The notes beneath the pieces were generated by a model, which was given only the letters and a program-made list of their open reading frames with translations, was not told the origin of the DNA and made no database searches. 63,851 bases of DNA from positions 64,001-127,851 of the IMG/VR virus record IMGVR_UViG_2879469214_000003; one strand, written 5' to 3'. The first letter of the stretch is position 1. Each line of letters starts with the position of its first letter. This DNA comes from a virus. Lineage: Duplodnaviria > Heunggongvirae > Uroviricota > Caudoviricetes. This document shows positions 599-29,313 of this stretch, one piece after another. The translations under genes were made by a program, and so were the position numbers.

Positions 599-652
599 AT
601 GTACACTCCTTTCAATTTCATAAATCTTTTCTCAGTAAATGATCGATTTTAT

Positions 653-847
653 CTAATCCTGATGGTCATATATGTATTCAAGTTCAAACTCCACATCTAA
701 TGCTTCTAATAAATCCTTTACAACATCTATGTAAATATCTGTGTATGTGCCAACCAACTCTTCATTAAGAATTAGCTCTGTTCCCCATTCTCCACAACAA
801 CCATCTGAGCAACTGTAGTGATATTCTCTGATTAAAATTTTGTTCAT
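653..847 (-). CDS. Hypothetical acidic phage protein
   Basis: ORF co-oriented with array; overlaps upstream stop. Confidence 0.65.
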   Translation of the reverse strand: MNKILIREYHYSCSDGCCGEWGTELILNEELVGTYTDIYIDVVKDLLEALDVEFELEYIYDHQD

Positions 848-972
848 TTGATTATCGCAACTATTAGTGCAGCGAATGACAATACAACAGATATGTATAA
901 AAGTAAGTAAATCTCAACGACACTCTTTAGATATTCCTTTTTCCATAGATACGCTTTAAACTTTTTAAACAT
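844..972 (-). CDS. 42-aa membrane peptide (not in ORF track)
   Basis: SD AAGGAG then MFKKFKAYLWKKEYLKSVVEIYLLLYISVVLSFAALIVAIIK*; stop overlaps next ATG. Confidence 0.65.
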   Translation of the reverse strand: MFKKFKAYLWKKEYLKSVVEIYLLLYISVVLSFAALIVAIIK

Positions 973-1282
973 AGTTACCACTCCTTTCTTGTTGAATTAT
1001 CAATTTCATTGAAAAATAAGTCTCTCAGTTTCTTCCATCCAAAGAACCTACGTGCTACTGGCTAGTTTTACACATAAATATAGGACTAAGATACTAAAAC
1101 CAAAGCAATCCCAAACAAAAAATTAGGTATTTGGGGTTCATTCAACATATAGTCCTATATATAATATGGTATAAAACATTACCATAAACACTATATGTAC
1201 ACCACAATACAATTGACTTATCTATATATGGTGTTGTAAGCTAATCTTGTTCCAATATTTTCTTTAGGACTAGGAGGTGAAT

Positions 1283-1432
1283 TTGTTGACAACTAGATCT
1301 AGCACTCGAAAGGTATCTTCTACTGCAATGTCTAAAAAGGCTTCTTCAGTTTTAAGAAGTAAATCCTCAAGTAAAACTGCCAAGTCTCTAGCAGGATCTG
1401 TTCTGGCACAATCTCGGTCAGGGCGCAAATAA
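1283..1432 (+). CDS. 49-aa Ser/Lys-rich basic peptide (not in ORF track)
   Basis: SD GGAGGTG, TTG start, LTTRSSTRKVSSTAMSKKASSVLRSKSSSKTAKSLAGSVLAQSRSGRK*. Confidence 0.65.
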   Translation: MLTTRSSTRKVSSTAMSKKASSVLRSKSSSKTAKSLAGSVLAQSRSGRK

Positions 1433-1457
1433 CTCTAATTCGAAAGGGGTCATTATA

Positions 1458-1589
1458 GTGACTAAAAAGATTAAGATTAACCTATCTGGGTCTAAATCCC
1501 AAATTAAAAGTCAGTTGAGAAAGGCTGAACGAGAGATTACGCGAGATATTGAGAGACAGTTAGAACGTCAGATCAACAAGTTGAGGTAG
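1458..1589 (+). CDS. 43-aa basic helical peptide (not in ORF track)
   Basis: SD AAAGGGG, GTG start, TKKIKINLSGSKSQIKSQLRKAEREITRDIERQLERQINKLR*. Confidence 0.6.
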   Translation: MTKKIKINLSGSKSQIKSQLRKAEREITRDIERQLERQINKLR

Positions 1590-1620
1590 TATCTCTTCAT
1601 TCTTCATAATCTTTTGACTC

Positions 1621-1646
1621 CTCCAGATGCCGGATAACATCTGGGG
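1621..1646. terminator. Hairpin between convergent units
   Basis: CTCCAGATG / CATCTGGGG stem. Confidence 0.55.
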
Positions 1647-1690
1647 GAACCTTATAAATTCTTTATTTGATTAAAACTTCTAAAGACTGT

Positions 1691-2056
1691 CTACTGCTCA
1701 TATGTATTAATAGCTTTCTCAATGTCACTTAGTATCTTTTTCATTTCTTCAGCATTCTTACTATAAACTGAACCACCACTTGATTTAATCTCAAACTTGA
1801 AGTCGTCTTTGTTCGTCTCTGGTTCAACTGGAACAGTGTTGTAAATCAGCGTTCCTTTTGGGAATGTCTTTTTAGTGTAACTGTCACAATAATCTTCTTT
1901 AAGTTCAGTTAAACCTTTACATCCTCTAATTTGTTTAACACTTTTCTTTGATCTAATCCAGCAATGACCGAGCGTTTTAAACTTATGAACCTCTAAGAGT
2001 AAACCTTCTCTTACTCGCCAAATATCTTTAATTGCGTGTGATTGTATTTTTTCCAT
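1691..2056 (-). CDS. Hypothetical phage protein
   Basis: 121-aa ORF in array. Confidence 0.65.
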   Translation of the reverse strand: MEKIQSHAIKDIWRVREGLLLEVHKFKTLGHCWIRSKKSVKQIRGCKGLTELKEDYCDSYTKKTFPKGTLIYNTVPVEPETNKDDFKFEIKSSGGSVYSKNAEEMKKILSDIEKAINTYEQ

Positions 2057-2393
2057 ATGTATCGATCCGTTTCTGAATTTTCTTTTTTATCCGATTGCTT
2101 TTAGTTTTAGTTAGGATACTTTGTAGTTGCTTGATTTTATATCCCTTCTCAATAGCCTTAACCATTTTTTCAACACTTCGCCACTCAACAATTAACTGAT
2201 CAACTTTATACTTCAGTCCTTCAACTTCTACTTCATCAGATACAGTTACGTTCATTTTCAAATCACTTGCTTTCACATTGCCTTGCATATCAATCTTAAA
2301 CTTTTCTTCCTCAAACACTTCTGCTGCTAATGGTTTAACTGGTGTACTAAATTTACTTGCTACCTTTTTGATGAATTCTTTAAATTTACTCAT
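2028..2393 (-). CDS. Hypothetical Lys-rich phage protein
   Basis: 121-aa ORF with upstream SD AAGGGG. Confidence 0.65.
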   Translation of the reverse strand: MSKFKEFIKKVASKFSTPVKPLAAEVFEEEKFKIDMQGNVKASDLKMNVTVSDEVEVEGLKYKVDQLIVEWRSVEKMVKAIEKGYKIKQLQSILTKTKSNRIKKKIQKRIDTYGKNTITRN

Positions 2394-2452
2394 TCGATTT
2401 CCCCTTGTTATGTGAATTTATGAGACTCTTTATTTCCGATGAAATACAGCTT

Positions 2453-2626
2453 TTACAGTGACTCTAATCGTTTGATTAACACCTGAACCTTTAACCCATA
2501 TTCAGTTCTACTTTCTTTTGCTGATTCAATTACTTTATCTATATCGCTCTGTCTAGAGACGATCTGTTTGACCATCTCATCCACAGAGGTTTCACTTATG
2601 TATTTGATGGTTCTAAGCCTGTCCAT
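2453..2626 (-). CDS. 57-aa hypothetical protein (not in ORF track)
   Basis: MDRLRTIKYISETSVDEMVKQIVSRQ...KRLESL*, start abuts gmk stop. Confidence 0.6.
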   Translation of the reverse strand: MDRLRTIKYISETSVDEMVKQIVSRQSDIDKVIESAKESRTEYGLKVQVLIKRLESL

Positions 2627-3154
2627 TTATCCTTTTGACTCAACTTTGATAATGTTTCGGATAATTTTCACTGCCTTATCAAAATCATAGTTAATTACTT
2701 GATAGTCGTAACGTTTCTTTTTAAATTTCAGTCCATCAGTATTAACTCGTGAAAGAATTCGAATTACATCGTCTCCACGCTTTTGCATACGTTTCATTCG
2801 TGTCTCTTTATCCACTTTCAGATAAATTACTACAAACTCGATGTCTTCCATACGCTTCTTCAAATCCTCGATACCTACAGGATCTACAACATAGATATCT
2901 GATAGCATTAGCTGCCGCTTAGTGGCGAAGTAGTGGTAGCCTTGAATTTGAGAATAAGCAGCAATTTCATCTTTTTCTTTAAATTTCTCATATTCCTCAT
3001 TATTGCAAAAAGTATGCCCCCATTCATTCTTATGTCTTTGTGGCCTTGTAGTATATGACTGTAAAACTTTGTATCCATCTTTCTCTAGCTCTTTTACAAT
3101 TTCAGTCTTGCCAGCTCCTGAATAAGCCATAATGCAAAATATCTTTTTCTTCAT
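2627..3154 (-). CDS. gmk: Guanylate kinase-like nucleoside monophosphate kinase
   Basis: P-loop AYSGAGKT, SYTTRPQR, GHTF, YHYFAT motifs. Confidence 0.85.
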   Translation of the reverse strand: MKKKIFCIMAYSGAGKTEIVKELEKDGYKVLQSYTTRPQRHKNEWGHTFCNNEEYEKFKEKDEIAAYSQIQGYHYFATKRQLMLSDIYVVDPVGIEDLKKRMEDIEFVVIYLKVDKETRMKRMQKRGDDVIRILSRVNTDGLKFKKKRYDYQVINYDFDKAVKIIRNIIKVESKG

Positions 3155-3171
3155 ATGTATACCTCGTTTTC

Positions 3172-3678
3172 CTAATCAATAATTCTAACCTTTATATGCT
3201 TCTTTCGACCAAAATTTAAAGCTTCTTTTTCAGTTTCAAAGTACACGTCAATCCGTTTATTCTTAATGTCTCCACCTTTATCTTGCACAACTCTTTCCCC
3301 TACTCCATCTATGTAAACACGAGTTCCCTTTGGGAGTACTCGCCAGTCAGCAGCTATGGTAACTCCTTCTTTGGTCTTTTCCCCGCTTGCTGTGATTCCA
3401 TAATCTGCATCGCCCTTATTCTTGCCAGTGCTATTTTCATGGTTGGAATATGCGGTTAATTCGAAATACATCCAATCATATTCACCATCACTTTTTTTGC
3501 TAGATACTACTTTTACTTGCTTAACTTCCTTTTTGACAACCTTCTTGGGCTCCGCCGACTGTTCAACTTTAACACTCTCAATCTTAGTCGTGTTTTTCGC
3601 TTCTCGTGCTTGATTGGCACTTTCTAATCCTGCCTGACCAATGGATAGTGCCAACAATAGAGATAGGAGTACTTCCAA
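3172..3678 (-). CDS. Secreted 3D-domain (lytic transglycosylase-like) protein
   Basis: Signal peptide; LTAY, TASG, IAADWRVLPKGT, DKGGDIKNKRIDVY 3D motifs. Confidence 0.85.
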   Translation of the reverse strand: MEVLLSLLLALSIGQAGLESANQAREAKNTTKIESVKVEQSAEPKKVVKKEVKQVKVVSSKKSDGEYDWMYFELTAYSNHENSTGKNKGDADYGITASGEKTKEGVTIAADWRVLPKGTRVYIDGVGERVVQDKGGDIKNKRIDVYFETEKEALNFGRKKHIKVRIID

Positions 3679-3755
3679 CGTATCACCTTCCTGATATTTG
3701 ATTATAGTAAAGCCCCACTATTTCAAGTGAGGCTATATGTGCAACTACATTAATG

Positions 3756-4277: not shown

Positions 4278-4293
4278 AATACGTCCTCCTATT

Positions 4294-4340
4294 TATCTAT
4301 ATGTAGATCGGGATGTTTACTTCTGATCTACATATAGATA
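4294..4340. repeat. Perfect 16-bp inverted repeat (15-nt loop) in intergenic region
   Basis: TATCTATATGTAGATC ... GATCTACATATAGATA. Confidence 0.85.
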
Positions 4341-4380
4341 TTTATTCTTTATGAAATCTGTCTTATATGAACTCTATGTA

Positions 4381-7346: not shown

Positions 7347-7619
7347 TAATTAATTTTATCTCCCTTTGTGTATATGTATTTTTTGATTGGTGTCTCTCTA
7401 GATAATCAGTTACATTGGAGGACTTCTCAATCTGCTCGTCATTTGTTCCACCACCTTTTCAAAATGAACTTGCTGCCTCTATATAATCACGCAAAGCGTG
7501 TTATTTTAATCTCCGTCATTCTTTCATATGCTCTCTTATGCTTCTCTATTCAAATCCAATTTCTTGATGAAACTATTATTTGACTAACTTCTTCTGTTCT
7601 TCGTTTAACTTACTCTCTT

Positions 7620-7687: not shown

Positions 7688-8140
7688 CTACATAAACTTC
7701 ATGGCAAATCTATCGAATCTAATTTCTGGTTCTGCAACATGCAACTCATAAATAACTCTAGTATCATTGCATTGGAATCTTTCCAATTGGTATTCGCTAA
7801 GACACTCTTGAAATAGTCGCTCCAAGGAACTCTTACGATCTTTTATATATGTATCATTAAAATTTTCATAAGAGTCGAAGCGAGTCATCTTTATCATCTC
7901 TTTTCTGTATCCATATAAAAAGGAGTGAATAAATTCAGTAGATTTGTCTTTGCAGTTATCTACAAAATAGTCCATGTTTCCTTTAAACATAAACTCGACC
8001 ATGTTTAAAAAAGTTCCAGCTCTCTTGCTAACCCCCAAAATCTCCATGACTTGTTGCATATGCTCATACCTCTCTCGTAAAAATGTATTTTCTGGATGTA
8101 AATTCTTCCTATGTACAAATTTTAATCCATCTTTATACAC
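7688..8140 (-). CDS. Hypothetical protein downstream of Agr-like cassette (start may be ATG at 8059)
   Basis: 150-aa ORF; GAGGT SD precedes the internal ATG at 8059. Confidence 0.6.
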   Translation of the reverse strand: MYKDGLKFVHRKNLHPENTFLRERYEHMQQVMEILGVSKRAGTFLNMVEFMFKGNMDYFVDNCKDKSTEFIHSFLYGYRKEMIKMTRFDSYENFNDTYIKDRKSSLERLFQECLSEYQLERFQCNDTRVIYELHVAEPEIRFDRFAMKFM

Positions 8141-10190: not shown

Positions 10191-10221
10191 AAAAAAGAAT
10201 AAAGTTTTCACTCTATTCTTT
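10191..10221 (-). terminator. Terminator after mrpR
   Basis: AAAGAATAGAG / CTTTATTCTTT stem followed by U run on minus strand. Confidence 0.55.
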
Positions 10222-11230
10222 AAAGTCCATACACTTTTTCAATTGTGGGAATATTCAAGAATTCTGACCTCATAGGCCCAGATTGATACTGACCCATTTT
10301 ATCTTTCTTTATGTTGAAGTGTTCAAATATTTCCGAATATTCTTCTGCCTCTAACTTATTCCGCTTATGATACAAGTCTCTTGCCACTTTCAACATTCCA
10401 CTATTTCTTACGTTTTTTACAGTTAATTGAGGTAAGTTGTGCCACTCCGCTATTTTTTTCAGTCTTGATTGAACTAAATATATAGAAGTTGGCTCATCTA
10501 TTCCCTGTTTGATTGTAGAATTAACAGCGGATCTAAGAATATAGTCGTTATCAATCAATTCATTTACACTACTTTTAATGTTGGGCTTTAGTATGCCATT
10601 ATTCTTAATGTATTTCTCTTCTTTATTTGCTATTCTTAAAATGTTATATAAAAAATTAGATATTTTTATTTCTCTACTTTCTTTAGTCCCATCTCCATTA
10701 TCATTGAATAAGGTAATTCTATATTTCCCTTCACTTCCAGTTATGTGTTCCATTTTCATATTAAGAATTTCACTGTTTCCTTTACCCATAATTCCCTCAA
10801 ATAAAGCTTGAACTATTAGCTTATCCTGAAAATTCAAACACCCATCTACGACCTCACCTATATCATCTTCACTAAACAATGATTGATGGTTATCAATTAT
10901 AAATTGGCTATACCACTCAAAAGATGTTACCGCACTTAATGGGTTTATATTGTCTTTACGCAAGTCTTGATCTATCGCCCATCCTATGTAGTTATTAATA
11001 ACACTACCTGCTTGCCTTAAAGATGATATTTTTTTTGCCTTCAATAAATACAGAAATTGAGATATTTCATCAAGATTAAAATCATAAAGATCTTTATCTA
11101 AACTTTTTTCCATTATAGCAGCCCTTTTGAAAACACGTCCATAGGCCAGTTCTGTTGCTGGGCTCAAGTCTTTAAGGTATCTGCTTTTTTGATCTTTGTT
11201 AAAAAAATCTTCATTGTATATTTTATTCAC
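10220..11230 (-). CDS. mrpR: SPbeta-type master repressor MrpR/YopR (inactive tyrosine recombinase fold)
   Basis: FNKDQKSRYL, KDLYDF, YIGWAI, NFQDKLIVQALFEG, LTVKNVRNSG match YopR pattern; catalytic residues degenerate; GTG start at 11230 after GGAGGAG. Confidence 0.85.
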   Translation of the reverse strand: MNKIYNEDFFNKDQKSRYLKDLSPATELAYGRVFKRAAIMEKSLDKDLYDFNLDEISQFLYLLKAKKISSLRQAGSVINNYIGWAIDQDLRKDNINPLSAVTSFEWYSQFIIDNHQSLFSEDDIGEVVDGCLNFQDKLIVQALFEGIMGKGNSEILNMKMEHITGSEGKYRITLFNDNGDGTKESREIKISNFLYNILRIANKEEKYIKNNGILKPNIKSSVNELIDNDYILRSAVNSTIKQGIDEPTSIYLVQSRLKKIAEWHNLPQLTVKNVRNSGMLKVARDLYHKRNKLEAEEYSEIFEHFNIKKDKMGQYQSGPMRSEFLNIPTIEKVYGL

Positions 11231-12545
11231 CTTTATCGTCTCCTCCAAACAGCTCAACAAAGTAATTAAAAAGTTGTTCACGAAGTCTTTTGTTATTAGT
11301 CAAAGAAGCTTTAGAATTTAATTTTGTCTCTAAATTCACTAAGTCATTTTCAATAATATTAATGTACTGTTCAATATCAGCAAATTCAATCTCATTATCC
11401 TTTAAAAATCTAGACAGTACAATGTAACCAATAAACATTAAAGGGTGACTCATCCATCCATTCTCACGCAATTGAGTATTTTTCGAAAACTCATTTGGAT
11501 AATAACCTACGAGATAAACAAAAAAGTCATTTAGATACTTAGAGACCTGTATTACATCAAATTTTCTTTCCATCTTAAATGCGCGGTCTATAGCATAAGA
11601 TAGAATATCGAATGTCGTTAGCTCACCAGCTAAATCACTTACAGTACTCCCTGAAGCAATCTGTTTACCAATTTCTGATTTGCGCTGTAGTTCGACTACA
11701 ACTTTATCAGATAATTTTTCTTGAGCGAGCTCCTTTCTTCTCTCTTTATTCAATACGTTAATAGTATTGAGTTGACTAAAAAACTGCTTAGATGTCTCAT
11801 AATCATAAATTCTAACTGATAGTATTTCATTAAAATCCGTCAAAGGATTAATGCTAATAGCGGCAACAAATCCCTGTAATCGATGGAAGCCATCAAGGAT
11901 AGAAATTACTGCTCCATCATTTATAGTCAACATTCTTGTATCTGAATTATAACTTACAGGATCAATTTCTGTAGAGTATACATTTAATGTTATCATGTCC
12001 TCAAAATACTTGTTATCAGAGGCTTTAGCAGCAATTCTCTTTACACTTGCTCTGTTTAAAATTGGAGATTTAACTATCCCACCTGATTTATTCTGCTTAT
12101 AAGTCACTCCACGCTGAGTTTCTTCTTCATAAATTATAAGTTGACTATTTACCATCTTGACCAATTCTTTAATTGAAATTTTAGTGAGATAACTGTCATA
12201 TTTAACTTCAATTACATCATTTAAAGTGTAAGGTAAATAAATTTTATTTTGTTCTTTTTCTTTTAATGATATTAAAGCTTCTCTAATTTCACGTTCTCCA
12301 AAATATCTTTCTCGACTAGGGTTGGATTGATCCACCTCATGTAATGCGCTAACAATGCCCACTAAATGAGGTATAGATAACTCAGTTATTGTTTCTTCAT
12401 TTTGATAAATTCTCTGTATCATTCCAAACGGTACATTGTATTCAACCAGTTTTAGATTTAACTCGTACTGAGATTTTCTTGAATTTTGTGTTGATTTTAA
12501 AGTTTCTAAAATTTCTTTCTCAATATCAGATCGATCAAATTTCAT
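11223..12545 (-). CDS. DndB/DGQHR-like protein, SPbeta YopQ (SroE)-like
   Basis: ILDGFHRL motif, 440 aa, directly upstream of mrpR as in SPbeta. Confidence 0.75.
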   Translation of the reverse strand: MKFDRSDIEKEILETLKSTQNSRKSQYELNLKLVEYNVPFGMIQRIYQNEETITELSIPHLVGIVSALHEVDQSNPSRERYFGEREIREALISLKEKEQNKIYLPYTLNDVIEVKYDSYLTKISIKELVKMVNSQLIIYEEETQRGVTYKQNKSGGIVKSPILNRASVKRIAAKASDNKYFEDMITLNVYSTEIDPVSYNSDTRMLTINDGAVISILDGFHRLQGFVAAISINPLTDFNEILSVRIYDYETSKQFFSQLNTINVLNKERRKELAQEKLSDKVVVELQRKSEIGKQIASGSTVSDLAGELTTFDILSYAIDRAFKMERKFDVIQVSKYLNDFFVYLVGYYPNEFSKNTQLRENGWMSHPLMFIGYIVLSRFLKDNEIEFADIEQYINIIENDLVNLETKLNSKASLTNNKRLREQLFNYFVELFGGDDKGE

Positions 12546-12997: not shown

Positions 12998-13369
12998 TTA
13001 CAAAGACAACGATAGTTGTAGTGCCTTGTTAATTGAATTTCCAAAGTGTCTTGGAAGTTCTGCAATTTTAAAGTCTAACTGATCTTTTGAAACTGTCATG
13101 ATTTGTTCCAACAGAATAATACTATCTTCATATAATCCAATTTCATCTTTATTTACTTTAACATGTGTGGGCATAGCCTTTTTCACTCTACTTGTAACTG
13201 GGGCCACAATCACTACTGGACTATATTTATTTCCCATGTCGTTTCCTAAAACGATACACGGTCTCTCTCCACTTTGGACGCTGCCTTTATTTCTTCCTAG
13301 GTTTACATTCCACATATCTAATCTCTTAACTTCTTTCATTACTCTCTCCATTACTACTGCCATAATCAC
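12998..13369 (-). CDS. mazF: MazF/PemK (EndoA-like) endoribonuclease
   Basis: GSVQSGERPCIVLGNDMGNKYSPVVIVAPVTS, PTHV, LEQIMTVSK; catalytic Arg and Thr present. Confidence 0.9.
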   Translation of the reverse strand: MIMAVVMERVMKEVKRLDMWNVNLGRNKGSVQSGERPCIVLGNDMGNKYSPVVIVAPVTSRVKKAMPTHVKVNKDEIGLYEDSIILLEQIMTVSKDQLDFKIAELPRHFGNSINKALQLSLSL

Positions 13370-14109: not shown

Positions 14110-14149
14110 AATATTGTATTTATATAAAATCTACATTTTATTATAATTT

Positions 14150-15040
14150 CTATCCCTTAAAAGTCTGAATAACATCCTCGATCATTCTTTTCTTATCTTC
14201 GTTGCTTGATAGTTTTAGTCCTCTTCCTGCCGCTGCATAGAAGTGATGAAGCAGTACAACACGACGATTTCCCCAATAGTAAAGAGAATAGGCCCTATCT
14301 GCTTTGTGATCCTTGACAAGTTCCAAAGACCCTAATTGTTTATTTCTTGATACCATCTCAAGCAGAATATCACAAGAGTTACTACCATTACACACAATCC
14401 AGCCATCTCTAGTAAGTGATTTATGTATTGTATCAAAGAGTAAAGTTAAGTAATTTTTAAATTCAGGAATTGTATTAAAGAGCTTTTCAACATCTGAACT
14501 GTGGGGTTTAAACCTATGCGAGTGAAAAGGAATAAATTCTGCGGCGCAAAAATTTTCAAGTGATTTAATAACTTTTGCGCTCGTTTCTTCCTTGGTCAAG
14601 CCCTGTTTAAATTCCAACCAATTTGTGTACTCCCCTTCAATTAGAGATGTTGCCAATGGTGTCATTTCTCTATAGTACCTTCCAATTGGCACCGCAACAT
14701 GTTTAAATATACCTTCTGAATTATAGAATCTTGAATATTCCTCCCACGTTGATAAAGCAGCTTGTTTCTCCTTGACAGTTTTGTTGGTATTCTTAGTGTC
14801 TAGATGAGGGTTCAACCCCAGAGTTACAAATTTTATTTCTTTTCCTCCAGAAGCAAAAGGAACTGGAGCAATCAATTGTCCCATATACTCACTAACTAAT
14901 AATGTTTCATTTTTTAAACGCAGCGCTGAATTGAATCTGTTTACTATGTCACTGAAGTCAGAGCTCTGATTAATTATGTCACCAGTTAACTTGTCATCTT
15001 TAGTAAAACAAGAAATTAGATTTAGAAATTCCTCTTCCAT
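14150..15040 (-). CDS. UDG-superfamily DNA glycosylase-like protein (Brig1-like?)
   Basis: LGLNP, AEFIPFHS, IVCNG, LLHH motifs in UDG-fold order. Confidence 0.5.
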   Translation of the reverse strand: MEEEFLNLISCFTKDDKLTGDIINQSSDFSDIVNRFNSALRLKNETLLVSEYMGQLIAPVPFASGGKEIKFVTLGLNPHLDTKNTNKTVKEKQAALSTWEEYSRFYNSEGIFKHVAVPIGRYYREMTPLATSLIEGEYTNWLEFKQGLTKEETSAKVIKSLENFCAAEFIPFHSHRFKPHSSDVEKLFNTIPEFKNYLTLLFDTIHKSLTRDGWIVCNGSNSCDILLEMVSRNKQLGSLELVKDHKADRAYSLYYWGNRRVVLLHHFYAAAGRGLKLSSNEDKKRMIEDVIQTFKG

Positions 15041-15079
15041 ATGTATCCCCCTAACAGAAATTTAGATCAAACTTGCATT

Positions 15080-15328
15080 TTACTCAGAATCAATCTTGGT
15101 CCATCGAGTTTGGTTGCCCATCTTGTTATAATCCATATCAAATAATCTTTTTGCGCCAGCTAATTTATCATGCCACAAACCCTCTATGAGTGAATAAGAT
15201 CCATCATCGAAACATTTTCGGATTTCGATATCGTATCGCTCTCCCAACACTTCTGAATCCACTCTGGTTATAATTGCTTTATAGATGAATTCCTCATCAT
15301 CGAAACTGATTATTTTCTCCCACTTCAT
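15080..15328 (-). CDS. Hypothetical protein
   Basis: 82 aa, SD, array context. Confidence 0.6.
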   Translation of the reverse strand: MKWEKIISFDDEEFIYKAIITRVDSEVLGERYDIEIRKCFDDGSYSLIEGLWHDKLAGAKRLFDMDYNKMGNQTRWTKIDSE

Positions 15329-15361
15329 TGCTCATCCTCTTTTCCAAATGAAACATGCCTT

Positions 15362-15568
15362 TTACTTAATCGCAATCACTGTTCTAAGTCCATCTTCATT
15401 TAGGCTCACACCATAACCGCCAATTGACTTCACTGTCTTATATAAATCCTCAGCGATTCGCTTGTAGTTGTCTCCATAGTGAAATGAATCAAGAGCAACT
15501 TCCTTATTCGTATGTAATTCTTGCAGCAGATTAACCATTACAGGAATACTGCTGTTCATCGTAGGCAT
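15362..15568 (-). CDS. Hypothetical protein
   Basis: 68 aa, SD GGAGGAG. Confidence 0.6.
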   Translation of the reverse strand: MPTMNSSIPVMVNLLQELHTNKEVALDSFHYGDNYKRIAEDLYKTVKSIGGYGVSLNEDGLRTVIAIK

Positions 15569-16198: not shown

Positions 16199-16241
16199 TC
16201 CTCATTTTATCATCAGGATGAAACACATCTTTTATCTAAAC

Positions 16242-16691: not shown

Positions 16692-16734
16692 TTAGTTCAC
16701 CTTCTATTCAATTAAAATAGCCATTTCATTGCAA

Positions 16735-16962: not shown

Positions 16963-17011
16963 TACTAAATCATCTCCTTATAATAAAACAGTCATTTCAC
17001 CTTGAATACTT

Positions 17012-17221: not shown

Positions 17222-17251
17222 GTCATCATCTCCTTATGAAATAGTTATTTC

Positions 17252-17611
17252 TCAGAAATTAAATTCTGCTTTCACTTCTGTTTTATAATAATTTACAAAC
17301 AGATCAGCAAAATACTTTACATGCTCTTCTGTACCGTAATACTCGTAAAAGTACTTGTACATTTTCTCTACTATTTGCTTCTGCTCAACTTGATCATATT
17401 CCCAGACACTCATATTCCCAAGGGCTTCATGAAACTCATTTAGAATAACCTCTTTGTCTTCATCAGTAGCTTCATGCATAAATTCAAGCCAAGTGCCCAA
17501 CGAATCGCAAACGACACCAGTCAGTGTACTCTCTCTGTCTGATAAGAATTCATTAAGATCGTCCATTATGATCTTTACCAAGAATGAAATAGATTCATTG
17601 CCAATCCCCAT
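17252..17611 (-). CDS. Hypothetical acidic protein
   Basis: 119 aa, SD GAGG. Confidence 0.6.
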   Translation of the reverse strand: MGIGNESISFLVKIIMDDLNEFLSDRESTLTGVVCDSLGTWLEFMHEATDEDKEVILNEFHEALGNMSVWEYDQVEQKQIVEKMYKYFYEYYGTEEHVKYFADLFVNYYKTEVKAEFNF

Positions 17612-17712
17612 ATTGAGACCTCACTTCTCTATGAAATAAACCTTTCACAACCTTATGTATGCTGCTACTATAACTTAATTATATAGTAGCAGTGAAATAA
17701 GTGAAATATGCA

Positions 17713-18515: not shown

Positions 18516-18730
18516 TGTATATATCTCCTTATTTATATTATTTTTGTGTATATAAATTTTAAAGAAAAACTTATTTTATTTACTTATTCTAAGATCAGCA
18601 ACCAGAACTCTGCTCTTTTTACCATTGATTACAACTTTTGCCCACAATCGTTTTTTATATTTATAATACTTTACTACATAGCCTATAGGATTCAACTATT
18701 GTCATCTCCTTTCTTAATCAAATACTTCTT

Positions 18731-19039
18731 TTACTGTAAACGCGGATTAGTCTCACAATAATCGTTTATATGTTTTATTTTATCTTTTATGAATTCATTC
18801 AATGTCTCTAATGCTTGTAAGAAACCTCCATCATTAATGAATTCTGTTTCAAACATTGATACACTCCATCTGTCAAATGTCTCTGGGAAATCAGCTCTTA
18901 AACAATACTGAAAGCCTGTACCCTGATGTGGCTCAATCAGTTGTACATACAATTCATTTCCTTTAAGCACAGTAACGCCATACTCAGACCAGCTTTGAAC
19001 GAGATTATGCTTTTCTGATAATAGTTTTATATAGTCCAT
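18731..19039 (-). CDS. Hypothetical protein
   Basis: 102 aa, SD AGGGGG. Confidence 0.65.
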   Translation of the reverse strand: MDYIKLLSEKHNLVQSWSEYGVTVLKGNELYVQLIEPHQGTGFQYCLRADFPETFDRWSVSMFETEFINDGGFLQALETLNEFIKDKIKHINDYCETNPRLQ

Positions 19040-19080
19040 TGCTTCCCCCTATCTTATAATGAAAGAATCCTTTCATTAAA

Positions 19081-19601: not shown

Positions 19602-19814
19602 CTAATTCAACTCCCTGTAAAATAATCTTTTCATAAACTTAATATTTGATTCTCAAAATCTACTATGCGATGATAAACGTCCTCCATACACTCTTTATCT
19701 GTTGAGTTAAAATTAGGTGAATTAACAATGGTATCAAGTAAACTCTGTCTAACCATCTCTCGCTCTGAGTCAGATAAAATTAGTTCCATTACATGCACAC
19801 TCCTTATAAAATAT

Positions 19815-20153
19815 TCATTTCATTTTATGACAATATACACATAGTAATTGTGCATTAGAAATATGATTTATTTGCTTCTCCGTTGCATTTGCTGGAAAAC
19901 TACTTACCTCTTTTATATGATCAACATCAAGTACTTTTTCTGATAAAGATACACCTCGTTTTGTTAGTTCACAACTAGGATTCATACATCTCACTCCGTA
20001 AGTTTTTATTGCATTTTTTCTGAATTTTTCGCGATATGTACCTGTTCTAACCTTACATTTACCACATCGCTTGTTGTTATTCGCATTACTAATCACTGTT
20101 GTACATCCATTCCCTTTGTATCCTACACATTGAATCATCATAATTGTGCTCAT
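19815..20153 (-). CDS. HNH endonuclease
   Basis: CRMNPSC...DVDHIKE...SNAQLLCVYCH. Confidence 0.8.
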   Translation of the reverse strand: MSTIMMIQCVGYKGNGCTTVISNANNNKRCGKCKVRTGTYREKFRKNAIKTYGVRCMNPSCELTKRGVSLSEKVLDVDHIKEVSSFPANATEKQINHISNAQLLCVYCHKMK

Positions 20154-20178
20154 TAATCACAGCCTCCTCATGAAAGGA

Positions 20179-20403
20179 TCATTTTACACTAACCAACTCA
20201 TCAATTTTCGCTTTCGCTGCTTCACTAGCTTCCTCTTTAGTGTCAAAAAAGGTTTTATTCCCATGCCATTCTGAATCATATAGATGTGAGCCATCTTTGT
20301 ATAATTTGAATTTCCATTTGTAATTACTTCTCTCAGATAAATTAATCTCAACATTATGCTTTTTGTATTTGCCCTTATACCCACTCCATTGCTTTTCTGT
20401 CAA
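20179..20403 (-). CDS. Hypothetical protein (start revised to TTG at 20403)
   Basis: SD GAGGTG precedes TTG ACA GAA AAG. Confidence 0.55.
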   Translation of the reverse strand: MTEKQWSGYKGKYKKHNVEINLSERSNYKWKFKLYKDGSHLYDSEWHGNKTFFDTKEEASEAAKAKIDELVSVK

Positions 20404-20966: not shown

Positions 20967-21185
20967 TTCGTTTTATCCTTCTTTCTCCATAAAATTATAG
21001 ATTCATTTAAACTGCAACCAAATCTCTTTGAAAAACAAAAACGTCATCATCCTCACACAATTCCATAAACATATCACGCTGCGCTTCAGTTGGAAATCCA
21101 TATGTATTCTCTGTAACTATATCAAGAATCTTCTCAATGACAACCACTTGATACATTGTGATCACCTCTTCTATTTGATAATCTT

Positions 21186-21559: not shown

Positions 21560-21668
21560 ATAATCACCATCCAGTAAGTTCTAAGTTGTCTATGTGATTA
21601 TATTCTAACACTGGGGGTCTTCTGGGTAAAATTAATCTTTCACAGGAAAAGAAAAAGCAGCCCGAAGG

Positions 21669-21884: not shown

Positions 21885-22110
21885 GTATTTCACCTCCTTT
21901 ACTCATAATTCTATATTACCATAATCAAGTAGAAGTTTAAATGATATCAGACTTTCACAGACTCTTTAATCGACTCAATTTTCTCCATATATATCTTTCT
22001 GTCAAACTGTCTATAAAACTCTCTTCCTGCACGAAAGAGGTTAGTAGCTTTGATTTCTACAGTTTGTGTCTGACATGCAAAGCGATTATAAAATGCGATT
22101 ATGTAATTAT

Positions 22111-22531: not shown

Positions 22532-22752
22532 TGTAATCTCTCCTTATGTATCTAATTGAAATTCAACTTTCATTTGCTTTCTTAAATTCCCTCAACATTT
22601 CTCGCATCTTATCCATACCTACACTCTTAGTCTTAGTTGTGCGCGCCGCGTATTCTACAAAGTCCTTGTAATCCATTTCATTAGTGAATATTGCTTTGGT
22701 TGGTCGTATTGGTTTATTGTTCATATTCATATGCTCTCTTTTCTGTAAGGAA

Positions 22753-22986: not shown

Positions 22987-23024
22987 CTTATTACCTCCAT
23001 TTTTGTTTTAGTAAAATAACTGTT

Positions 23025-23207
23025 TTATCCAAATACAGCGACTGTCTTGTTTATGGTCTTAACAAAGAGATTGCTGCCTTCTCTTTTGTGTACGAAATAA
23101 CGTTCGTTTTTAAACACAATACAGTCACTTTCAAATATTTGGAGATTTGAATCTACACAAAATTCTTCTTGTTCGTGGATCATTACTTTATATATCATAT
23201 AGTTCAC
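23025..23207 (-). CDS. Hypothetical protein
   Basis: 60 aa, stop within junction palindrome. Confidence 0.55.
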   Translation of the reverse strand: MNYMIYKVMIHEQEEFCVDSNLQIFESDCIVFKNERYFVHKREGSNLFVKTINKTVAVFG

Positions 23208-23433: not shown

Positions 23434-23462
23434 AAATACCCACTCCCAGTGAAATACTGTTT

Positions 23463-23729
23463 TTACTCAGAATCATCTATATTACTTCTTACAAAATCTT
23501 TAATGTCGCTAAGAATTTCATATTGCCAGCAAGAGAAATCATTGCTCTCTCCATAGCGTTCACAGGCTTCAGCTTTGGCAATTACTACTCTACCTTCCCA
23601 CTCATCGAACCTGTGAGTTATCTGCCAATCATTAAATGATCTAATAACTACATTCACTCTCTCCCTGTTACTATTCCACCAGTCAATACCCGTATCGGTA
23701 TCTAGTTCCTCAATAAGTTTAAAATTCAA
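23463..23729 (-). CDS. Hypothetical protein
   Basis: 88 aa, SD AAGGAGG. Confidence 0.6.
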   Translation of the reverse strand: MNFKLIEELDTDTGIDWWNSNRERVNVVIRSFNDWQITHRFDEWEGRVVIAKAEACERYGESNDFSCWQYEILSDIKDFVRSNIDDSE

Positions 23730-23837
23730 TATTAGCCCTCCTTTACTAAATGAAATCGTTGTTTTAACTCCTTATGTATCACATTAACAATACCTTGTTT
23801 CTATCTCCAACACTCTGTTACTTGATTCCATAAACAA

Positions 23838-24879: not shown

Positions 24880-25136
24880 AAAAGGAGCTGCTGTTTGCAG
24901 TCTCCTCTTCTTTATGTAAAAGTAACATTTGATCTAAACTTTAATACCAGAAACTTCTTGGAAGCGTATGTTTCCGATCAATCTTTCAAGTTTACGAATT
25001 GCGAGATTTTGGAGCTCTTTATCAGCAGTATCGGGAGTACAAGAAACAAAAACTTCTACAATAACGTCTTCACCCAAATCAACATTTACGATCTTTCCAT
25101 ACATCTGCATTCTCCTATTCTTGTAAAATTAAAATT

Positions 25137-25436
25137 TTATTTAGATATTGTCTTTAAAAGTAACTCATTAATTGAATTCAAAGTTGTTTCATTAACATTG
25201 GCTAATTTATCTCCATGAATAATGGAATCACTCTTTACCATTTTTATCATATAAGGATTCACTTTTAGGGTTTGACCTTGAGTTGTTTCGATGTCTAAAA
25301 TATCTACTTTTTTATGAGTGTCTCTCAAAATATCTAACACGCTCACAGTTTCTCCCATGTTGTGAACAACTAAGTATTTATTAAGCCCAACTCCAATTAT
25401 GTCACCGTTCTTAATCTCCATTGCGATCGCCTCCAT
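25137..25436 (-). CDS. Hypothetical protein, weak PemK/CcdB-like appearance
   Basis: IKNGDII...YLVV and C-terminal TLNSINELL helix; no clear catalytic motif. Confidence 0.4.
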   Translation of the reverse strand: MEAIAMEIKNGDIIGVGLNKYLVVHNMGETVSVLDILRDTHKKVDILDIETTQGQTLKVNPYMIKMVKSDSIIHGDKLANVNETTLNSINELLLKTISK

Positions 25437-25443
25437 AAATTTA

Positions 25444-25647
25444 TTATCTCATGAATCTAAAGTTCAATGGAATACCCAACTTGTCTTCAATTGTATTAAT
25501 TCGATTCTTAATGTTCATTCTCTCTTCCCAGTTTAAGTTGTCATTCATTAAATAATCTTCTTTGAGACTTTTCAGTATATCTCTTACACTCAACCTTAAC
25601 ACCTCTTTATGTATTATCTTCTCTATCTGAATATAATTATACAACAA
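25444..25647 (-). CDS. Hypothetical protein
   Basis: 67 aa; real start probably internal. Confidence 0.5.
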   Translation of the reverse strand: MLYNYIQIEKIIHKEVLRLSVRDILKSLKEDYLMNDNLNWEERMNIKNRINTIEDKLGIPLNFRFMR

Positions 25648-25678
25648 TAAAAATAAATATACAAGTATTATTTTATCG
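25636..25678 (-). promoter_or_regulatory. Promoter with AAAATAATAC box
   Basis: TTGTAT-17-TATAAT. Confidence 0.65.
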
Positions 25679-25733
25679 TTATTGATGATAAAAGTCTTGT
25701 TTTACCCAAAACAAAAACAGCCCGCTAAGGCTG

Positions 25734-26174
25734 CTAGTTAACTGTCTCTGCTGTTGGTATATCAACACCTAAAGACAATCCGGTTACGATAAATGAGACG
25801 ATGAAGATGAGTACATACAGCCATATAACTGTAAACCTTGATCTACCATCCATAAAAGCCAACGCAGGATGTATAATACCGAACACCATCAATGGCACTG
25901 AACTTACCATTATCGTAAACGGTATAGCTGCAAAACGATTGAATGGTGCAAAGACAAAGCAGATAAAGAAGAAGACTGTTATTGTGGCAATTGTCATGTA
26001 CTTGAATGTCTGAAGCTTCTTAATGCGCTTTCTAGCCTTTGGTTCTCTGTCGTAATAATCACTTATGTACCTATCTTGGATGTAGCTGTAAATCTTGTCT
26101 GATCCCCTCTTTGATGATTGTCGTTCTATCTTGTTCATTGATCTCTGAAACTTCTTCTGAGTCGGTGTTGGCAA
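25734..26174 (-). CDS. Three-TM membrane protein
   Basis: Basic N-terminus and three hydrophobic segments. Confidence 0.65.
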   Translation of the reverse strand: MPTPTQKKFQRSMNKIERQSSKRGSDKIYSYIQDRYISDYYDREPKARKRIKKLQTFKYMTIATITVFFFICFVFAPFNRFAAIPFTIMVSSVPLMVFGIIHPALAFMDGRSRFTVIWLYVLIFIVSFIVTGLSLGVDIPTAETVN

Positions 26175-26280
26175 GCCGTATCCCCCTTTTCGTTTTGTAT
26201 ACAGAGTGTATCATCATTCGAGTGATTTGAGAACAAAAAAGAGCCCAAATGGACTCCGTTTTCTTTGTGAAAGACTGGTT

Positions 26281-27321
26281 TTACTGGGTCTCCACTACGC
26301 CATTCTTCAGCAGATACTTCTTACTATTAACGCTTTCCGTTTGGCTCTTATCTACAACTTTATTACTATTGATTATTTGGGAAATAAAGCTTAGCTTATG
26401 TTCAAGTTCTGCTATTTCCTTTTTAAGTTTACTGTTCAGTTTAGATTTATTGTTAATCTGGGCATCTTTACCCTCTATAATTACGTCCTTCAGTTTAAGC
26501 TGATTCTTCAGTTCAGCAACCTCTAATTTCAATTCATTAATCTGAGAAACCTGACCTATACTAGCTTTCATATCGTTCAGAATGCTTTCTAATTGCCCTG
26601 TTATAGTTTGGGCCACATCTGGAGCCGAATCCGTCTCAGGATGCTTCTCAATTTGTTCTGTACGCTTTGTGCTACCCAAATAGATAACATTCTTTTCCAC
26701 TAAATAATTTTGAACAGATCCATGTTTCTTGGTGATTTGATAATACTTCTGATTAATGTTATTTTCTTTCCTATTTAATATCTTTGATACTGCTTTTATC
26801 GCAGCCTTCTTTGTGTTACCTTTCTTCTTTTCTTCCTGAATTGTTTTTTCCACTAACAACAATTCGTCATCATTCCAATCGCCCAGAATTTCACCCTTTT
26901 GACTATCTGTAAGAGTCTCCTCAACCCTTAATAAGTACTCTCTTACTGTTGCTGCCACTTTACTATCTCTGAGGAGCATTCCAAGACGTAGTAAACATCT
27001 ACGATTCAAAATTATTGCTGAGGGCACTCTGTCCAACTCTGGGACATCATGTCCTAGAGTCAGCCTATATTCCTTCAAGTCCTTGCTGTACAAGGTTTTT
27101 ATCCCATCATCTGAGAGCTCTTGTCTGTTTCTTTGAATAACCTTTCTAATTGTTTCGATACTGACTTCATAGTACTCCGCTGCTTGTCTGAGGGTCATAT
27201 TCTCACCATCTGGTAGCATACTCAAGGCTTTAACCTTGTTGAGTATTTCTGTTTTGACTATGTATTCATTCCGCAATGTTTGATCATCCATAAATCTATC
27301 CAATTGTAGCGCTTCATTCAT
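26281..27321 (-). CDS. Antirepressor-like DNA-binding protein with internal RsfA/Myb-like helix bundle and coiled coil
   Basis: ATG at 27321 after GGAGG; MTLRQAAEYYEVSIETIRKVIQRNRQEL HTH, RLGMLLRDSKVAATVREYLL; WNDDELLL segment. Confidence 0.6.
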   Translation of the reverse strand: MNEALQLDRFMDDQTLRNEYIVKTEILNKVKALSMLPDGENMTLRQAAEYYEVSIETIRKVIQRNRQELSDDGIKTLYSKDLKEYRLTLGHDVPELDRVPSAIILNRRCLLRLGMLLRDSKVAATVREYLLRVEETLTDSQKGEILGDWNDDELLLVEKTIQEEKKKGNTKKAAIKAVSKILNRKENNINQKYYQITKKHGSVQNYLVEKNVIYLGSTKRTEQIEKHPETDSAPDVAQTITGQLESILNDMKASIGQVSQINELKLEVAELKNQLKLKDVIIEGKDAQINNKSKLNSKLKKEIAELEHKLSFISQIINSNKVVDKSQTESVNSKKYLLKNGVVETQ

Positions 27322-27343
27322 TTTACAAACCTCCAATGTTATT

Positions 27344-27523
27344 TTATTTTTTATAGGTGGAAATGAAATTCTCAAGTTTATCAATCTCAGGCTTTTGTAA
27401 AGGCTGCTTTCCATTTATAAACAGTGAAAATAATGCATTACTGATTCCTAGTTTCTTTGCAATGAAGGATTTCTTGATTCCATAGTCATCAATAACTGTT
27501 TGTGTCCTCTCTTTTAATGTCAT
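27344..27523 (-). CDS. Cro-like HTH protein
   Basis: GIKKSFIAKKLGISNALFSLFING; SD AAGGAGGTG before ATG at 27523. Confidence 0.8.
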   Translation of the reverse strand: MTLKERTQTVIDDYGIKKSFIAKKLGISNALFSLFINGKQPLQKPEIDKLENFISTYKK

Positions 27524-27586
27524 GGCTCTCACCTCCTTAAAATATATTTTAATTGTTAAGCAAAAAAATTTAGTCAAATAAGCATT

Positions 27587-27781
27587 TCATTCAATCTCAT
27601 CTTTGCAAGAATAACACTCATTACTCTCTTCAATGGCTTGTCCCTTACTATTTACCACATACGAAATTGTGGAAAGTTGATTGCAAATGTAGCATTTTCC
27701 CAATCCGTTTCGCTGCTCATATTGCCCAATAAAGATTGAATTGTCTTCCTCCAAGTAAAATACGGACACAAATATCACCAC
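27587..27781 (-). CDS. Small Cys-containing protein
   Basis: CYIC...CYSC. Confidence 0.55.
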   Translation of the reverse strand: MVIFVSVFYLEEDNSIFIGQYEQRNGLGKCYICNQLSTISYVVNSKGQAIEESNECYSCKDEIE

Positions 27782-28092
27782 CTATCACCAGTATTAATAA
27801 TTATGCATGTTTGCGTATATAATTATCATTACTTGCGAGTGTTAAACTTTTTAGTTTGAATATTCATGCAGTAGACAACTTTACTGCTTAAGAATTGATC
27901 TTATAAATCTCAATTTGAATTTGATTACTATTTTCCGATCTTGGCAACACCAATGCGGACAAGTTGTTCGTTTTATTTACTGCTGTTACAAAGTCTGTAA
28001 TATCTGCGACACTATTAGTTAATTTCAATGTGATGACTAATTCATCTTTCATAATTCTCAATCCAACTCCTATGTATTTATATTTTTATTCC

Positions 28093-28362
28093 TTAGGGCA
28101 ACAAAGCTACACTTTCACCAGTTTGGACATAGTATGCACGTTGTAAGAAAGTTAAGGTGTGATCAGCCTTCCCTTCCATTACTTCCTTTGCTTCTTCTTT
28201 ACGCCATGCAAAATATGATTCTGGATCGTTTACTCTCACTTTTCCACATTCAACTTCTTCAATACAGGCTAATGAAATATCGGCAAATAATTGCCTTGTT
28301 TTTTGGATTGATTCTTCTGTAAGTTCTAGGCCATTAAATCTCAAAGTTTTTCCTCCCAACAT
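28093..28362 (-). CDS. Hypothetical phage protein
   Basis: 89 aa in array. Confidence 0.6.
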   Translation of the reverse strand: MLGGKTLRFNGLELTEESIQKTRQLFADISLACIEEVECGKVRVNDPESYFAWRKEEAKEVMEGKADHTLTFLQRAYYVQTGESVALLP

Positions 28363-28574
28363 TCCTTTGAAACAAGAATTTTATAAAGTCTGCTCTTTCG
28401 AGTAGTACTCCATTATTGTGATATTTGGATTGTCTTGCTCAGTTTCTTTAATCCAGTTTTCAATATCATCTGTTTCGATTTCCTTGTACATATAAGGCAG
28501 GAATAATCCTTCTTTATGATAATGAATGCCGTACTTCATTTCGTGCCTCCTTATGAAATCACTCTTTTACCTAG

Positions 28575-29210
28575 TTATGAGACGTTCCATAGGCTCAGTT
28601 CATACTCTTTTACTTCGTCTATTGTTAACGGTCTGTCATATGCGATGATTCCATGTCTACCTTTTGTGTCATCTGTCTGCGTAAATCCATTCGGCTGACA
28701 ACCAATAGACACAGGGCGTAGCCGCAATTCGTACCAATACAACCCATCTATATCTTTATTCCTGTTACTGTTTTGGTGTTCTGTCATATACTTCTCAAAA
28801 GCTTTTTCGGCTTTATATTGCTTTATGAATCCTTTGTAAGCTGCTACTTCTTGGCTCGCACTTTCTAGTTGTCTGCTATCATTCTTTAGTTGTTGCATAT
28901 CTTCACTGTTAATTGATAACTCCAAACATTCCGACGTATCCTCAATGATTGTTTCACCTTCATAAAATACATCTGTCGTAATTTGAATGTTTTTGAATCC
29001 CTGTTTCTGGTACAGATTAAACTTTTTCATAACTTCATTCATTGACTTACAAGAACTCTTGTTCACGTTCGAAAAATCGATTTTTACTTCTTCATCATGT
29101 TTTGTTGTCTCGATAGTGTAGATTAGCTCCATTTCTTTAGCTATTCCCCAATACTGCACTCCCTCTTTTGTTCTATGGCTGCAATCGGATTTCCATATAA
29201 TATTCTTCAT
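28575..29210 (-). CDS. Protein with C-terminal DarA_C-like (defence against restriction) domain
   Basis: YWYELRLRPVSIGCQPNGF...GRHGIIAYDRPLTIDEVKEYEL. Confidence 0.6.
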   Translation of the reverse strand: MKNIIWKSDCSHRTKEGVQYWGIAKEMELIYTIETTKHDEEVKIDFSNVNKSSCKSMNEVMKKFNLYQKQGFKNIQITTDVFYEGETIIEDTSECLELSINSEDMQQLKNDSRQLESASQEVAAYKGFIKQYKAEKAFEKYMTEHQNSNRNKDIDGLYWYELRLRPVSIGCQPNGFTQTDDTKGRHGIIAYDRPLTIDEVKEYELSLWNVS

Positions 29211-29313
29211 TTATATTCCTCCATGTTTTAATGAAATGAGTATTTGACTTAGTTACATTACAATGTTTCTCGTTCAGGTACGGTGTTTATGTATTGCTTA
29301 ACTTGTTAATGTA

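Follow-up and report, generated by a model that had tools for sequence, protein, structure and literature searches.

The DNA studied here is a stretch of 63,851 nucleotides (hereafter the window) that corresponds to bases 64001–127851, the right half, of a 127,851 bp provirus (IMG/VR record IMGVR_UViG_2879469214_000003). This provirus is a Paenibacillus prophage, and several homologues encoded in it mark it as SPbeta-like. The genes lie on the minus strand from position 1 to about 35 kb of the window, and the late genes lie on the plus strand. The junctions of the early genes are occupied by numerous copies of a 16 bp motif, T[GA]AAA-N6-TTT[TC]A, in which two inverted arms flank a spacer of six bases. 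This motif marks junctions where related phages have exchanged genes, and each junction has a conserved 6 bp centre of its own.

A scan of the window with this core motif revealed 26 exact copies, compared with 2.57 expected (maximum seven) in dinucleotide shuffles; 22 of the 26 are located within 2440–29985. An exact copy was present in 15 of 56 regions of 70 nucleotides (nt) upstream of early genes, versus 0.16 in shuffles of the same regions. The possibility, allowed for in an earlier note made from the sequence alone, that the motif is not enriched at junctions is thus not borne out. When the distance between the arms was varied from 2 to 10 bp over the whole provirus, the counts were 2, 3, 3, 4, 50, 1, 0, 4 and 4, respectively, i.e., only N6 is enriched. 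The earlier note had placed the motif at gene junctions, often starting with the upstream stop codon and preceding the next Shine-Dalgarno sequence, and this agrees with our counts: 46 of the 50 provirus copies lie outside predicted coding sequence, typically 13–38 nt ahead of the next start, the T[AG]A of the arm is the stop codon of the upstream gene in 10 of them, and a ribosome-binding site can begin 2 nt past the motif. The motif is abundant in the early operons and rare in the late operon transcribed by the phage polymerase YonO.

A copy was found at all 23 coordinates given in the earlier note, 17 of them exact and six with one arm mismatch (636, 993, 15067, 17237, 27574 and 29232). Besides these, there are exact copies at 16219, 19618, 19807, 25124, 25689 and 29970 that it did not list. 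Two exact copies of the late region, 49156–49171 and 52545–52560, fall inside genes by open reading frame coordinates and are conserved together with the coding sequence; they are probably chance matches rather than junction sites.

To catalogue the sites, we compared the provirus of the window (g0) with three related whole proviruses, G001, G002 and G003 (g1, g2 and g3), which contain 59, 52 and 52 exact copies, respectively, and scored in how many of the three a collinear site with the same spacer is present. On the minus strand, exact junction sites held by all three relatives are 2440..2455 (the arm gives the stop of gene 2453–2626), 17632..17647, 19060..19075, 19618..19633, 19807..19822, 20171..20186, 21627..21642, 23012..23027 (the arm gives the upstream stop; neither flank is homologous in G001), 23751..23766 (again neither flank is homologous in G001), 26268..26283 (the arm gives the stop of gene 26281–27414; homology with G001 stops here) and 28554..28569, together with a junction-type site, 25124..25139, that overlaps a plus-strand open reading frame in our crude gene call. 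Exact minus-strand sites held by two relatives are 14125..14140 (the slot 14125–15067 is unrelated in G001 and G002), 15349..15364 and 23450..23465 (in both the arm gives the upstream stop), 16219..16234, 16713..16728 (the adjoining slot is unrelated in G001), 16984..16999, 22557..22572, 25689..25704 (homology with G001 begins exactly here), 28368..28383 and 29970..29985. One arm mismatch is found in the minus-strand sites 636..651 (spacer GATCGA on the plus strand), 7568..7583, 15067..15082 (arm TCAAA), 17237..17252, 18718..18733, 20990..21005, 27574..27589 (where a 1.6 kb insertion begins in G001) and 29232..29247, all held by three relatives, and in 993..1008, 4352..4367 and 21942..21957, held by two; 8078..8093 (minus strand, one arm mismatch, two relatives) is a weaker, probable junction site. 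On the plus strand, junction-type sites present in all three relatives follow the gene of the HU-like protein YonN (38308..38323) and the stop of a yomM-like gene, 12 nt past it (57802..57817).

The full element is longer than the core motif. It comprises about 28 bp and is an 11-6-11 dyad, TYYnnR-TRAAA-N6-TTTYA-YnnRRA: on the transcribed strand a purine precedes the core, a pyrimidine follows it, and R-R-A occupies positions +19 to +21; of 22 copies, 21 have A at +21. Conservation of the mirror-image T-Y-Y ahead of the core (−6 to −4) is weaker, in the window and in SPbeta alike. Among orthologous sites, about 85% of groups vary in the flanks, compared with 60–75% from −9 to +23 and almost none in the core. 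The downstream arm is better kept than the upstream one and faces downstream at most minus-strand sites of the array. This apparent orientation of the sites with the genes probably results from the overlap of the upstream outer arm with the end of the upstream gene, since an arm whose TRA often serves as a stop codon is less free to match the consensus. The first base of the spacer is A in only 2 of 46 copies and the last base T in 1 of 46, and the arms are therefore sharply bounded. The 5-6-5 palindrome of the earlier note is thus real as a core, to which must be added that the genes lie on the minus strand and that the element extends to about 28 bp. The tyrosine-recombinase-like geometry that it noticed also holds, in the form of the 11-6-11 dyad: inverted arms around a spacer of 6–8 bp are characteristic of the core sites of these enzymes, and here only N6 is enriched.

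Only about half of the DNA of g0 can be aligned with G001, at about 80% identity. The two genomes nevertheless share 35 exact sites (71 if up to one arm mismatch is allowed) that are collinear and have identical spacers, where chance would give about 0.7 shared spacers. Across the four genomes the sites form 71 ortholog groups, in which the spacers are identical and stand in the same order. In a test blind to the spacers, 28 exact sites were projected through flanking homology (66–92% identity): 23 keep all six bases, three differ and two are lost, against a survival of about 30% expected at the rate of the flanks (P about 2e-8). As to the sites without flanking DNA homology, 19 of 22 have a partner with the same spacer at the collinear place. 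The arms are more tolerant, with arm positions 1 and 14 variable in 52% and 63% of the ortholog groups, compared with about 85% for the flanks. Thus, conserved spacers are combined with tolerant arms, as is to be expected of tyrosine-recombinase core sites, which must match in their spacers; the spacers are the best-conserved part of the element, which is the opposite of what an operator read through its half-sites predicts. By eye, the alignments revealed no pattern linking arm variants to a homologous flank; arm bases flip even beside flanks that are 90% identical.

It should be mentioned that no identical, reverse-complement-identical or palindromic spacers occur within any of the genomes, in agreement with the earlier note, according to which all spacers differ; about 2.4 such cases would be expected in g0 and 1.9 in SPbeta. 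Taken alone, the absence of spacer duplication is weak support, yet it is required of a set of mutually non-recombining sites.

The genes between the sites behave quite differently from the sites themselves. We searched with tblastn, using flanks of 450 nt, at the 71 site pairs of g0 and G001 and found homology on neither side of 23, on one side of 31 and on both sides of 17. When the slots of the window between adjacent conserved sites were compared with the relatives (74 comparisons), 41 were without protein-level homology, 19 were partly related and 14 were the same. For example, the slot 17237–17632 is filled differently in each of the four phages, with unrelated DNA of 379, 213, 478 and 1142 bp, and the slots 19807–20171 and 28554–29232 are unrelated in all three relatives. 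Because sites with the same spacer persist while the contents of the slots differ, the identity of a site follows its position and not the gene.

Closely related phages give a sharper view of the breakpoints. Between SPbeta and phi3Ts, blocks of 100% identity, 0.1–18 kb in length, stop 0–7 bp from the core at no fewer than 16 sites, that is, at least 16; at the SPbeta sites 86886 and 113513 the identity breaks between the spacer and the downstream arm, and seven sites are isolated islands of 16–22 bp in unrelated flanks; SPbeta 88400, 116415 and 117535 are examples of isolated sites. Compared with random positions, the ends of alignment blocks are enriched near the sites (up to 10 bp away) 18-fold for SPbeta vs. 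phi3T and 5-fold for g0 vs. G001, although most block ends lie elsewhere. The proposal that the motif marks cassette boundaries is therefore supported by the order and spacers kept in three proviruses, by the 41 of 74 unrelated slots and by the breaks of identity 0–7 bp from the core, and the comparison of slots did not bear out the contrary case, in which indels in relatives are unrelated to the motif. The sites are most likely fixed crossover points for the swapping of gene cassettes. One such cassette, flanked by junction sites on both sides, is the minus-strand gene at 28575–29210, whose product has a DarA_C (defence against restriction) domain.

The motif was also found outside the phages of Paenibacillus. 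In SPbeta, TAAAA-N6-TTTTA occurs 36 times, followed by the same W-N-N-A-R-A, and 29 of these copies, which often begin with a TAA stop, are located in the plus-strand yop–yot region. Relative to sigma-A promoters, the site is upstream at yorE and aimR and downstream at yosX, i.e., the order is not fixed. The motif arms are common to Bacillus and Paenibacillus phages. An N6 peak was also revealed in Geobacillus virus E3 (42 copies), Tsamsa (29) and a Staphylococcus SPbeta-like phage (20), and a weak one in Lactococcus 949 and in a partial contig of Clostridium D-1873. In a literature search on the motif or on cassette junctions of SPbeta phages we found no published description. A separate observation concerns SPbeta 99498 and phi3Ts 89345, which have reverse-complementary spacers (TGATAA vs. 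TTATCA) at roughly matching places; judged from the sequences, this pair may represent an inverted site.

Two known signals of SPbeta were considered as the identity of the motif and rejected. The master repressor MrpR/SroF, a protein of the recombinase fold, has been reported to bind the element SPBRE, at which its peaks in chromatin affinity precipitation with sequencing (ChAP-seq) are located, and the SroF boxes have been reported to vary between phages. The upstream regions of ten ChAP-seq-positive SPbeta genes share a different box, around ATACAAAnAATATGTAT, and the TAAAA-N6-TTTTA copies lie apart from it. The motif is not a YonO promoter either, as the published YonO start region upstream of yonK (mapped to coordinates by our own estimate) is without a motif copy and the motif is rare in the late operon.

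Three genes of the window encode proteins of the tyrosine-recombinase fold, which match SPbeta YomM, YopP and MrpR. The YomM-like protein (56789..57790, plus strand; Pfam Phage_integrase) is 60% identical to SPbeta YomM and is a candidate for binding or cutting the sites. The second candidate is a YopP/SroD-like tyrosine recombinase (33827..34879, minus strand; 30% identity with YopP). The third protein is a MrpR/SroF-like master repressor (10220..11281, minus strand; Pfam MrpR_N_CB and MrpR_C_cat), which has the recombinase fold, is not catalytic and binds a different box. Of the catalytic set R-K-H-R-H/W-Y of tyrosine recombinases, R, HxxR, H and Y are all present in the YopP-like protein; in the YomM-like protein, Lys takes the place of Arg II, and Arg I, the two His and the Tyr are intact. 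The same Lys occupies the position of the second catalytic Arg in both YomM and YopP of SPbeta. A match of the YomM-like protein to the integron integrase IntI4 is marginal (E 0.05).

YomM is the most conserved protein shared with SPbeta that is neither structural nor involved in replication (60% identity between Bacillus and Paenibacillus phages), a degree of conservation that would be in keeping with the conserved arms. Its gene is always located just upstream of the tape-measure gene, with a site closely downstream; SPbeta and Geobacillus E3 have a motif copy shortly downstream of yomM, as in the window. A YomM-type gene directly upstream of the tape-measure gene was found in SPbeta-like phages, Geobacillus E3, Tsamsa-like phages and phages of the Lactococcus 949 group, which we take to be virulent. 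We also asked whether one of the recombinase-fold genes co-occurs with the motif, and this was uninformative, as all three are present in every motif-rich phage examined; only Clostridium phage D-1873 was negative, and its contig is incomplete and still gives a weak N6 peak. The earlier note had the array shuffled by the recombinase adjacent to it. This choice is not upheld, because the YopP-like gene at 33827–34879 is no more linked to the sites than the YomM-like or MrpR-like one. It should be added that the YomM-like protein of the window is 99.4% identical to that of G003 (171612–172610) and 83–84% identical to those of G001 and G002, a pattern of sequence identity that suggests mosaic exchange in the late region too.

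Taken together, we consider that there is about an even chance that the sites are heterospecific core sites of a phage protein of the tyrosine-recombinase fold, predicted to bring about an ordered exchange of cassettes. According to this model, the 6 bp spacer of each junction would serve as its address. A dimeric phage protein of this fold, YomM-like or YopP-like, would bind the 11 bp arms and exchange strands across the spacer. With spacer identity needed for the reaction, the only possible partner of a site would be the corresponding junction of another phage or prophage, and a pair of exchanges at two junctions would swap one cassette, so that gene order would be kept and no DNA would be deleted within a genome. 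Recombination by short homology is a poor fit, because arm variation leaves a perfect match of about 12 bp.

Several points weigh against a recombinase acting at these sites. The recombinase activity and the site binding of the candidate proteins are predictions, and the Lys at Arg II (in YomM and in SPbeta YopP) may reduce or abolish cleavage. YomM is encoded in the tail module even where the motif signal is weak (Lactococcus 949), so that its role may be unrelated to the sites. If spacers were under purifying selection because they allow later exchange, this would be a second-order effect, and the spacers may have a first-order function instead; a regulatory site might likewise be expected just ahead of a ribosome-binding site. 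Finally, high-frequency site-specific exchange is not evident in hybrid crosses, which could not have resolved it: when the laboratory SPbeta × phi3T hybrids (Hyb1–3, PP526179) were painted with parental k-mers, every crossover fell in blocks of 1.4–18 kb that are identical in the parents, and none at an isolated site. Since ordinary homologous recombination suffices for these crossovers, the hybrids neither show nor exclude the use of the sites.

The strongest rival, rather improbable as we see it but still live, is the alternative of operators already named in the earlier note: a dimeric DNA-binding protein of the phage (SroD/YopP, SroE/YopQ or a small helix-turn-helix protein) would silence or insulate the early genes, and recombination would be a by-product of a short conserved sequence. 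The dyad arms, the placement after a stop codon and ahead of the following ribosome-binding site and the abundance in early operons as opposed to the YonO-transcribed late operon are all what operators would show; moreover, there are SPbeta repression proteins whose binding sites we did not find described, and SPbeta YopP is without the second catalytic Arg, as a protein that only binds might be. Yet operators are normally recognised through their half-sites, and in these elements it is the half-sites that vary while the spacers stay constant. Neither the distance to the next start nor the position relative to sigma-A promoters is fixed (yorE and aimR vs. yosX), the reported ChAP-seq peaks of MrpR are at SPBRE and not at the motif, and the perfect match of about 12 bp that remains after arm variation is short for homologous exchange. 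Conserved, unique and non-palindromic spacers between dyad arms would be explained as well as by a recombinase if a dimeric endonuclease of the BstXI or SfiI type cut within N6 and the junction-specific overhangs were re-ligated like with like, which would let co-infecting genomes re-assort in order. The annotation of SPbeta does list a ligase-like protein and several nucleases; however, we identified no candidate enzyme, cutting at about 50 sites of a genome would be hazardous, and an 11-6-11 extent is typical of tyrosine recombinases and not of restriction-type enzymes. We hold this to be quite improbable.

Slightly less probable still is a signal for gene expression, be it an RNA processing stem, a translational operator or a promoter recognised by a phage-specific polymerase or sigma factor. 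In favour of such a signal are the location of the element ahead of ribosome-binding sites, its co-orientation with the genes and the conserved A found 6 nt past the core. A sigma-A promoter or UP element was rejected in view of the lack of −35/−10 elements after the site and of the ribosome-binding site that can begin 2 nt past it; −10/−35-like elements are missing altogether, and at some copies a sigma-A promoter is situated downstream. The bases at arm positions 1 (R) and 14 (Y) vary independently of each other, and A with C, which do not pair, is the combination seen most often (16 of 46; Fisher P 0.37). Folding of the 5 bp arms into a hairpin would cost energy in most copies (+0.5 to +1.5 kcal/mol). 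Because of this missing covariation and the positive folding energy, an RNA or cruciform stem is unlikely, a hairpin of RNA or DNA was ruled out as a candidate, and the processing stems suggested earlier are contradicted. Nor would any such signal explain spacers that differ between sites and are invariant among orthologues. The least credible reading is the integron-type array favoured by the earlier note, in which cassettes carrying their own attC-like site would be inserted and excised as circles by a neighbouring integrase. Small, mostly promoterless genes split by imperfect palindromes, in an element that has tyrosine recombinase genes, do resemble an integron. However, site identity goes with position and not with the gene, no spacers are duplicated as integrative insertion would cause, and the sites are duplex dyads of 16–28 bp instead of folded attC sites of 57–141 bp with the structure R''-L''/L'-R'; no attI/Pc arrangement was seen, although no test was aimed at one.

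If the recombinase model is extended to other hosts, we think it possible, at somewhat less than even chances, that large temperate siphophages of Firmicutes (SPbeta-like phages of Bacillus, Paenibacillus, Geobacillus and Staphylococcus, and possibly Tsamsa-like phages) carry an ordered array of 30–70 heterospecific sites, at which a protein of the tyrosine-recombinase fold swaps single accessory or anti-defence genes with relatives while the order is kept. This would be a natural recombinase-mediated cassette exchange distinct from integrons and pdif modules. How gene-sized modules are swapped cleanly at gene boundaries is a long-standing question of phage mosaicism, usually answered either by illegitimate recombination, rare and sifted by selection, or by homologous recombination within conserved flanking DNA. 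Dedicated junctions with position-specific addresses would explain the precise, order-keeping replacement of accessory and anti-defence genes. As the sites are present in SPbeta, a tractable model phage of B. subtilis, the idea is directly testable. If true, it would give a function to the conserved and unexplained YomM/YopP recombinase-like proteins, and it may provide a natural set of orthogonal recombination sites.

Other features of the window are in line with its SPbeta-like origin. The gene at 35269..37845 (plus strand) encodes an 858-aa single-chain RNA polymerase of the YonO type, which marks the phage as SPbeta-like; the protein has a Pfam RdRP match and 45% identity with SPbeta YonO. 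Searches with SPbeta proteins (tblastn) revealed homologues of MrpR/SroF, YopQ/SroE, YopP/SroD, YomM, the HU-like YonN and YonK in the window. The YopQ/SroE-like protein (11223..12545, minus strand), which was identified in this way and is DndB/ParB-like, is a possible DNA binder. A gene for a PemK/MazF-type toxin (12998–13369, minus strand; Pfam E 7e-25) adjoins the repressor operon; SPbeta YopM has been reported to work through the host MazE/MazF pair. The relative G001 has two MrpR-like genes (85644–86645 and 72286–73365; 41% and 53% identical to the window copy), one of which sits within the small-gene array. Between the YopP-like gene and the next gene there is a 750 bp stretch without an obvious gene (33076–33826), 75% conserved in G001, which may serve as an origin or a resolution site or encode a non-coding RNA. 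It contains the palindrome TATAA-N6-TTATA (33248), kept only partly in G001. The earlier note had linked this palindrome to the junction sites, a link that does not stand, given its different arms and its location in a separate conserved non-coding stretch. No relative was found in a search of genome contigs with a 377-aa protein or in a search of viral contigs with a 296-aa protein.

Comparison of the junction sites with known systems revealed partial likenesses to several of them. The closest parallel to the proposed mechanism is found in the heterospecific lox and FRT sites of Cre and Flp, which also consist of inverted arms around a spacer of 6–8 bp, recombine only if their spacers are identical and allow a cassette between two different sites to be swapped from molecule to molecule, with no rearrangement elsewhere. 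They differ in being engineered pairs with 13 bp arms and an 8 bp spacer, whereas here there is a natural array of about 50–70 sites with 11 bp arms and a 6 bp spacer, for which the enzyme is a candidate only. The dif/pdif modules of Acinetobacter plasmids, acted upon by XerC/XerD, share the 28 bp 11-6-11 structure, the better conservation of one arm and the role of the sites as bounds of exchangeable modules. They differ in the alternating orientation of sites and in the use of the host XerCD, while the phage sites are co-oriented with the genes and the recombinase-fold candidates are phage-encoded; the phage arms are TRAAA/TTTYA and the phage spacers form a conserved, ordered set. In the array, the alternating (inverted) orientation of pdif sites is indeed not observed, the better-conserved arm facing downstream at most sites. 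The arms of B. subtilis dif presumably differ from those of the motif as well, which we note only as a lead. In integrons, small gene cassettes are likewise split by imperfect palindromes and linked to a tyrosine recombinase (IntI); however, attC moves with its cassette, recombines as a folded single strand and inserts at attI, whereas here short duplex dyads are fixed in position.

Among repeated elements of other phages, the stoperators of mycobacteriophage L5 and its relatives are similar in their number (about 25–30 copies), in their location in small intergenic gaps, often over stop codons, and in their co-orientation with transcription. Unlike the dyad with site-specific centres described here, they all have one asymmetric 13 bp sequence, to which the immunity repressor binds; here the master repressor that is known, MrpR/SroF, has another box as its target. 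The PeSL cassettes of T4-type phages and the "boundary sequences" of lambdoid phages are also short conserved intergenic sequences that border swapped modules, but they are repeats of the same promoter/stem-loop or linker that act via homologous recombination, whereas the junctions studied here have private centres and a match of about 12–16 bp. Finally, the SPBRE operator of MrpR/SroF is, like our sites, a repeated intergenic element of the same phage family, and it has a binder of the recombinase fold. It differs from them in its sequence (around ATACAAAnAATATGTAT), in being read by a monomer over 24 bp, in its number of about 10 occupied promoter copies and in being phage-specific, while the junction sites are shared across genera.

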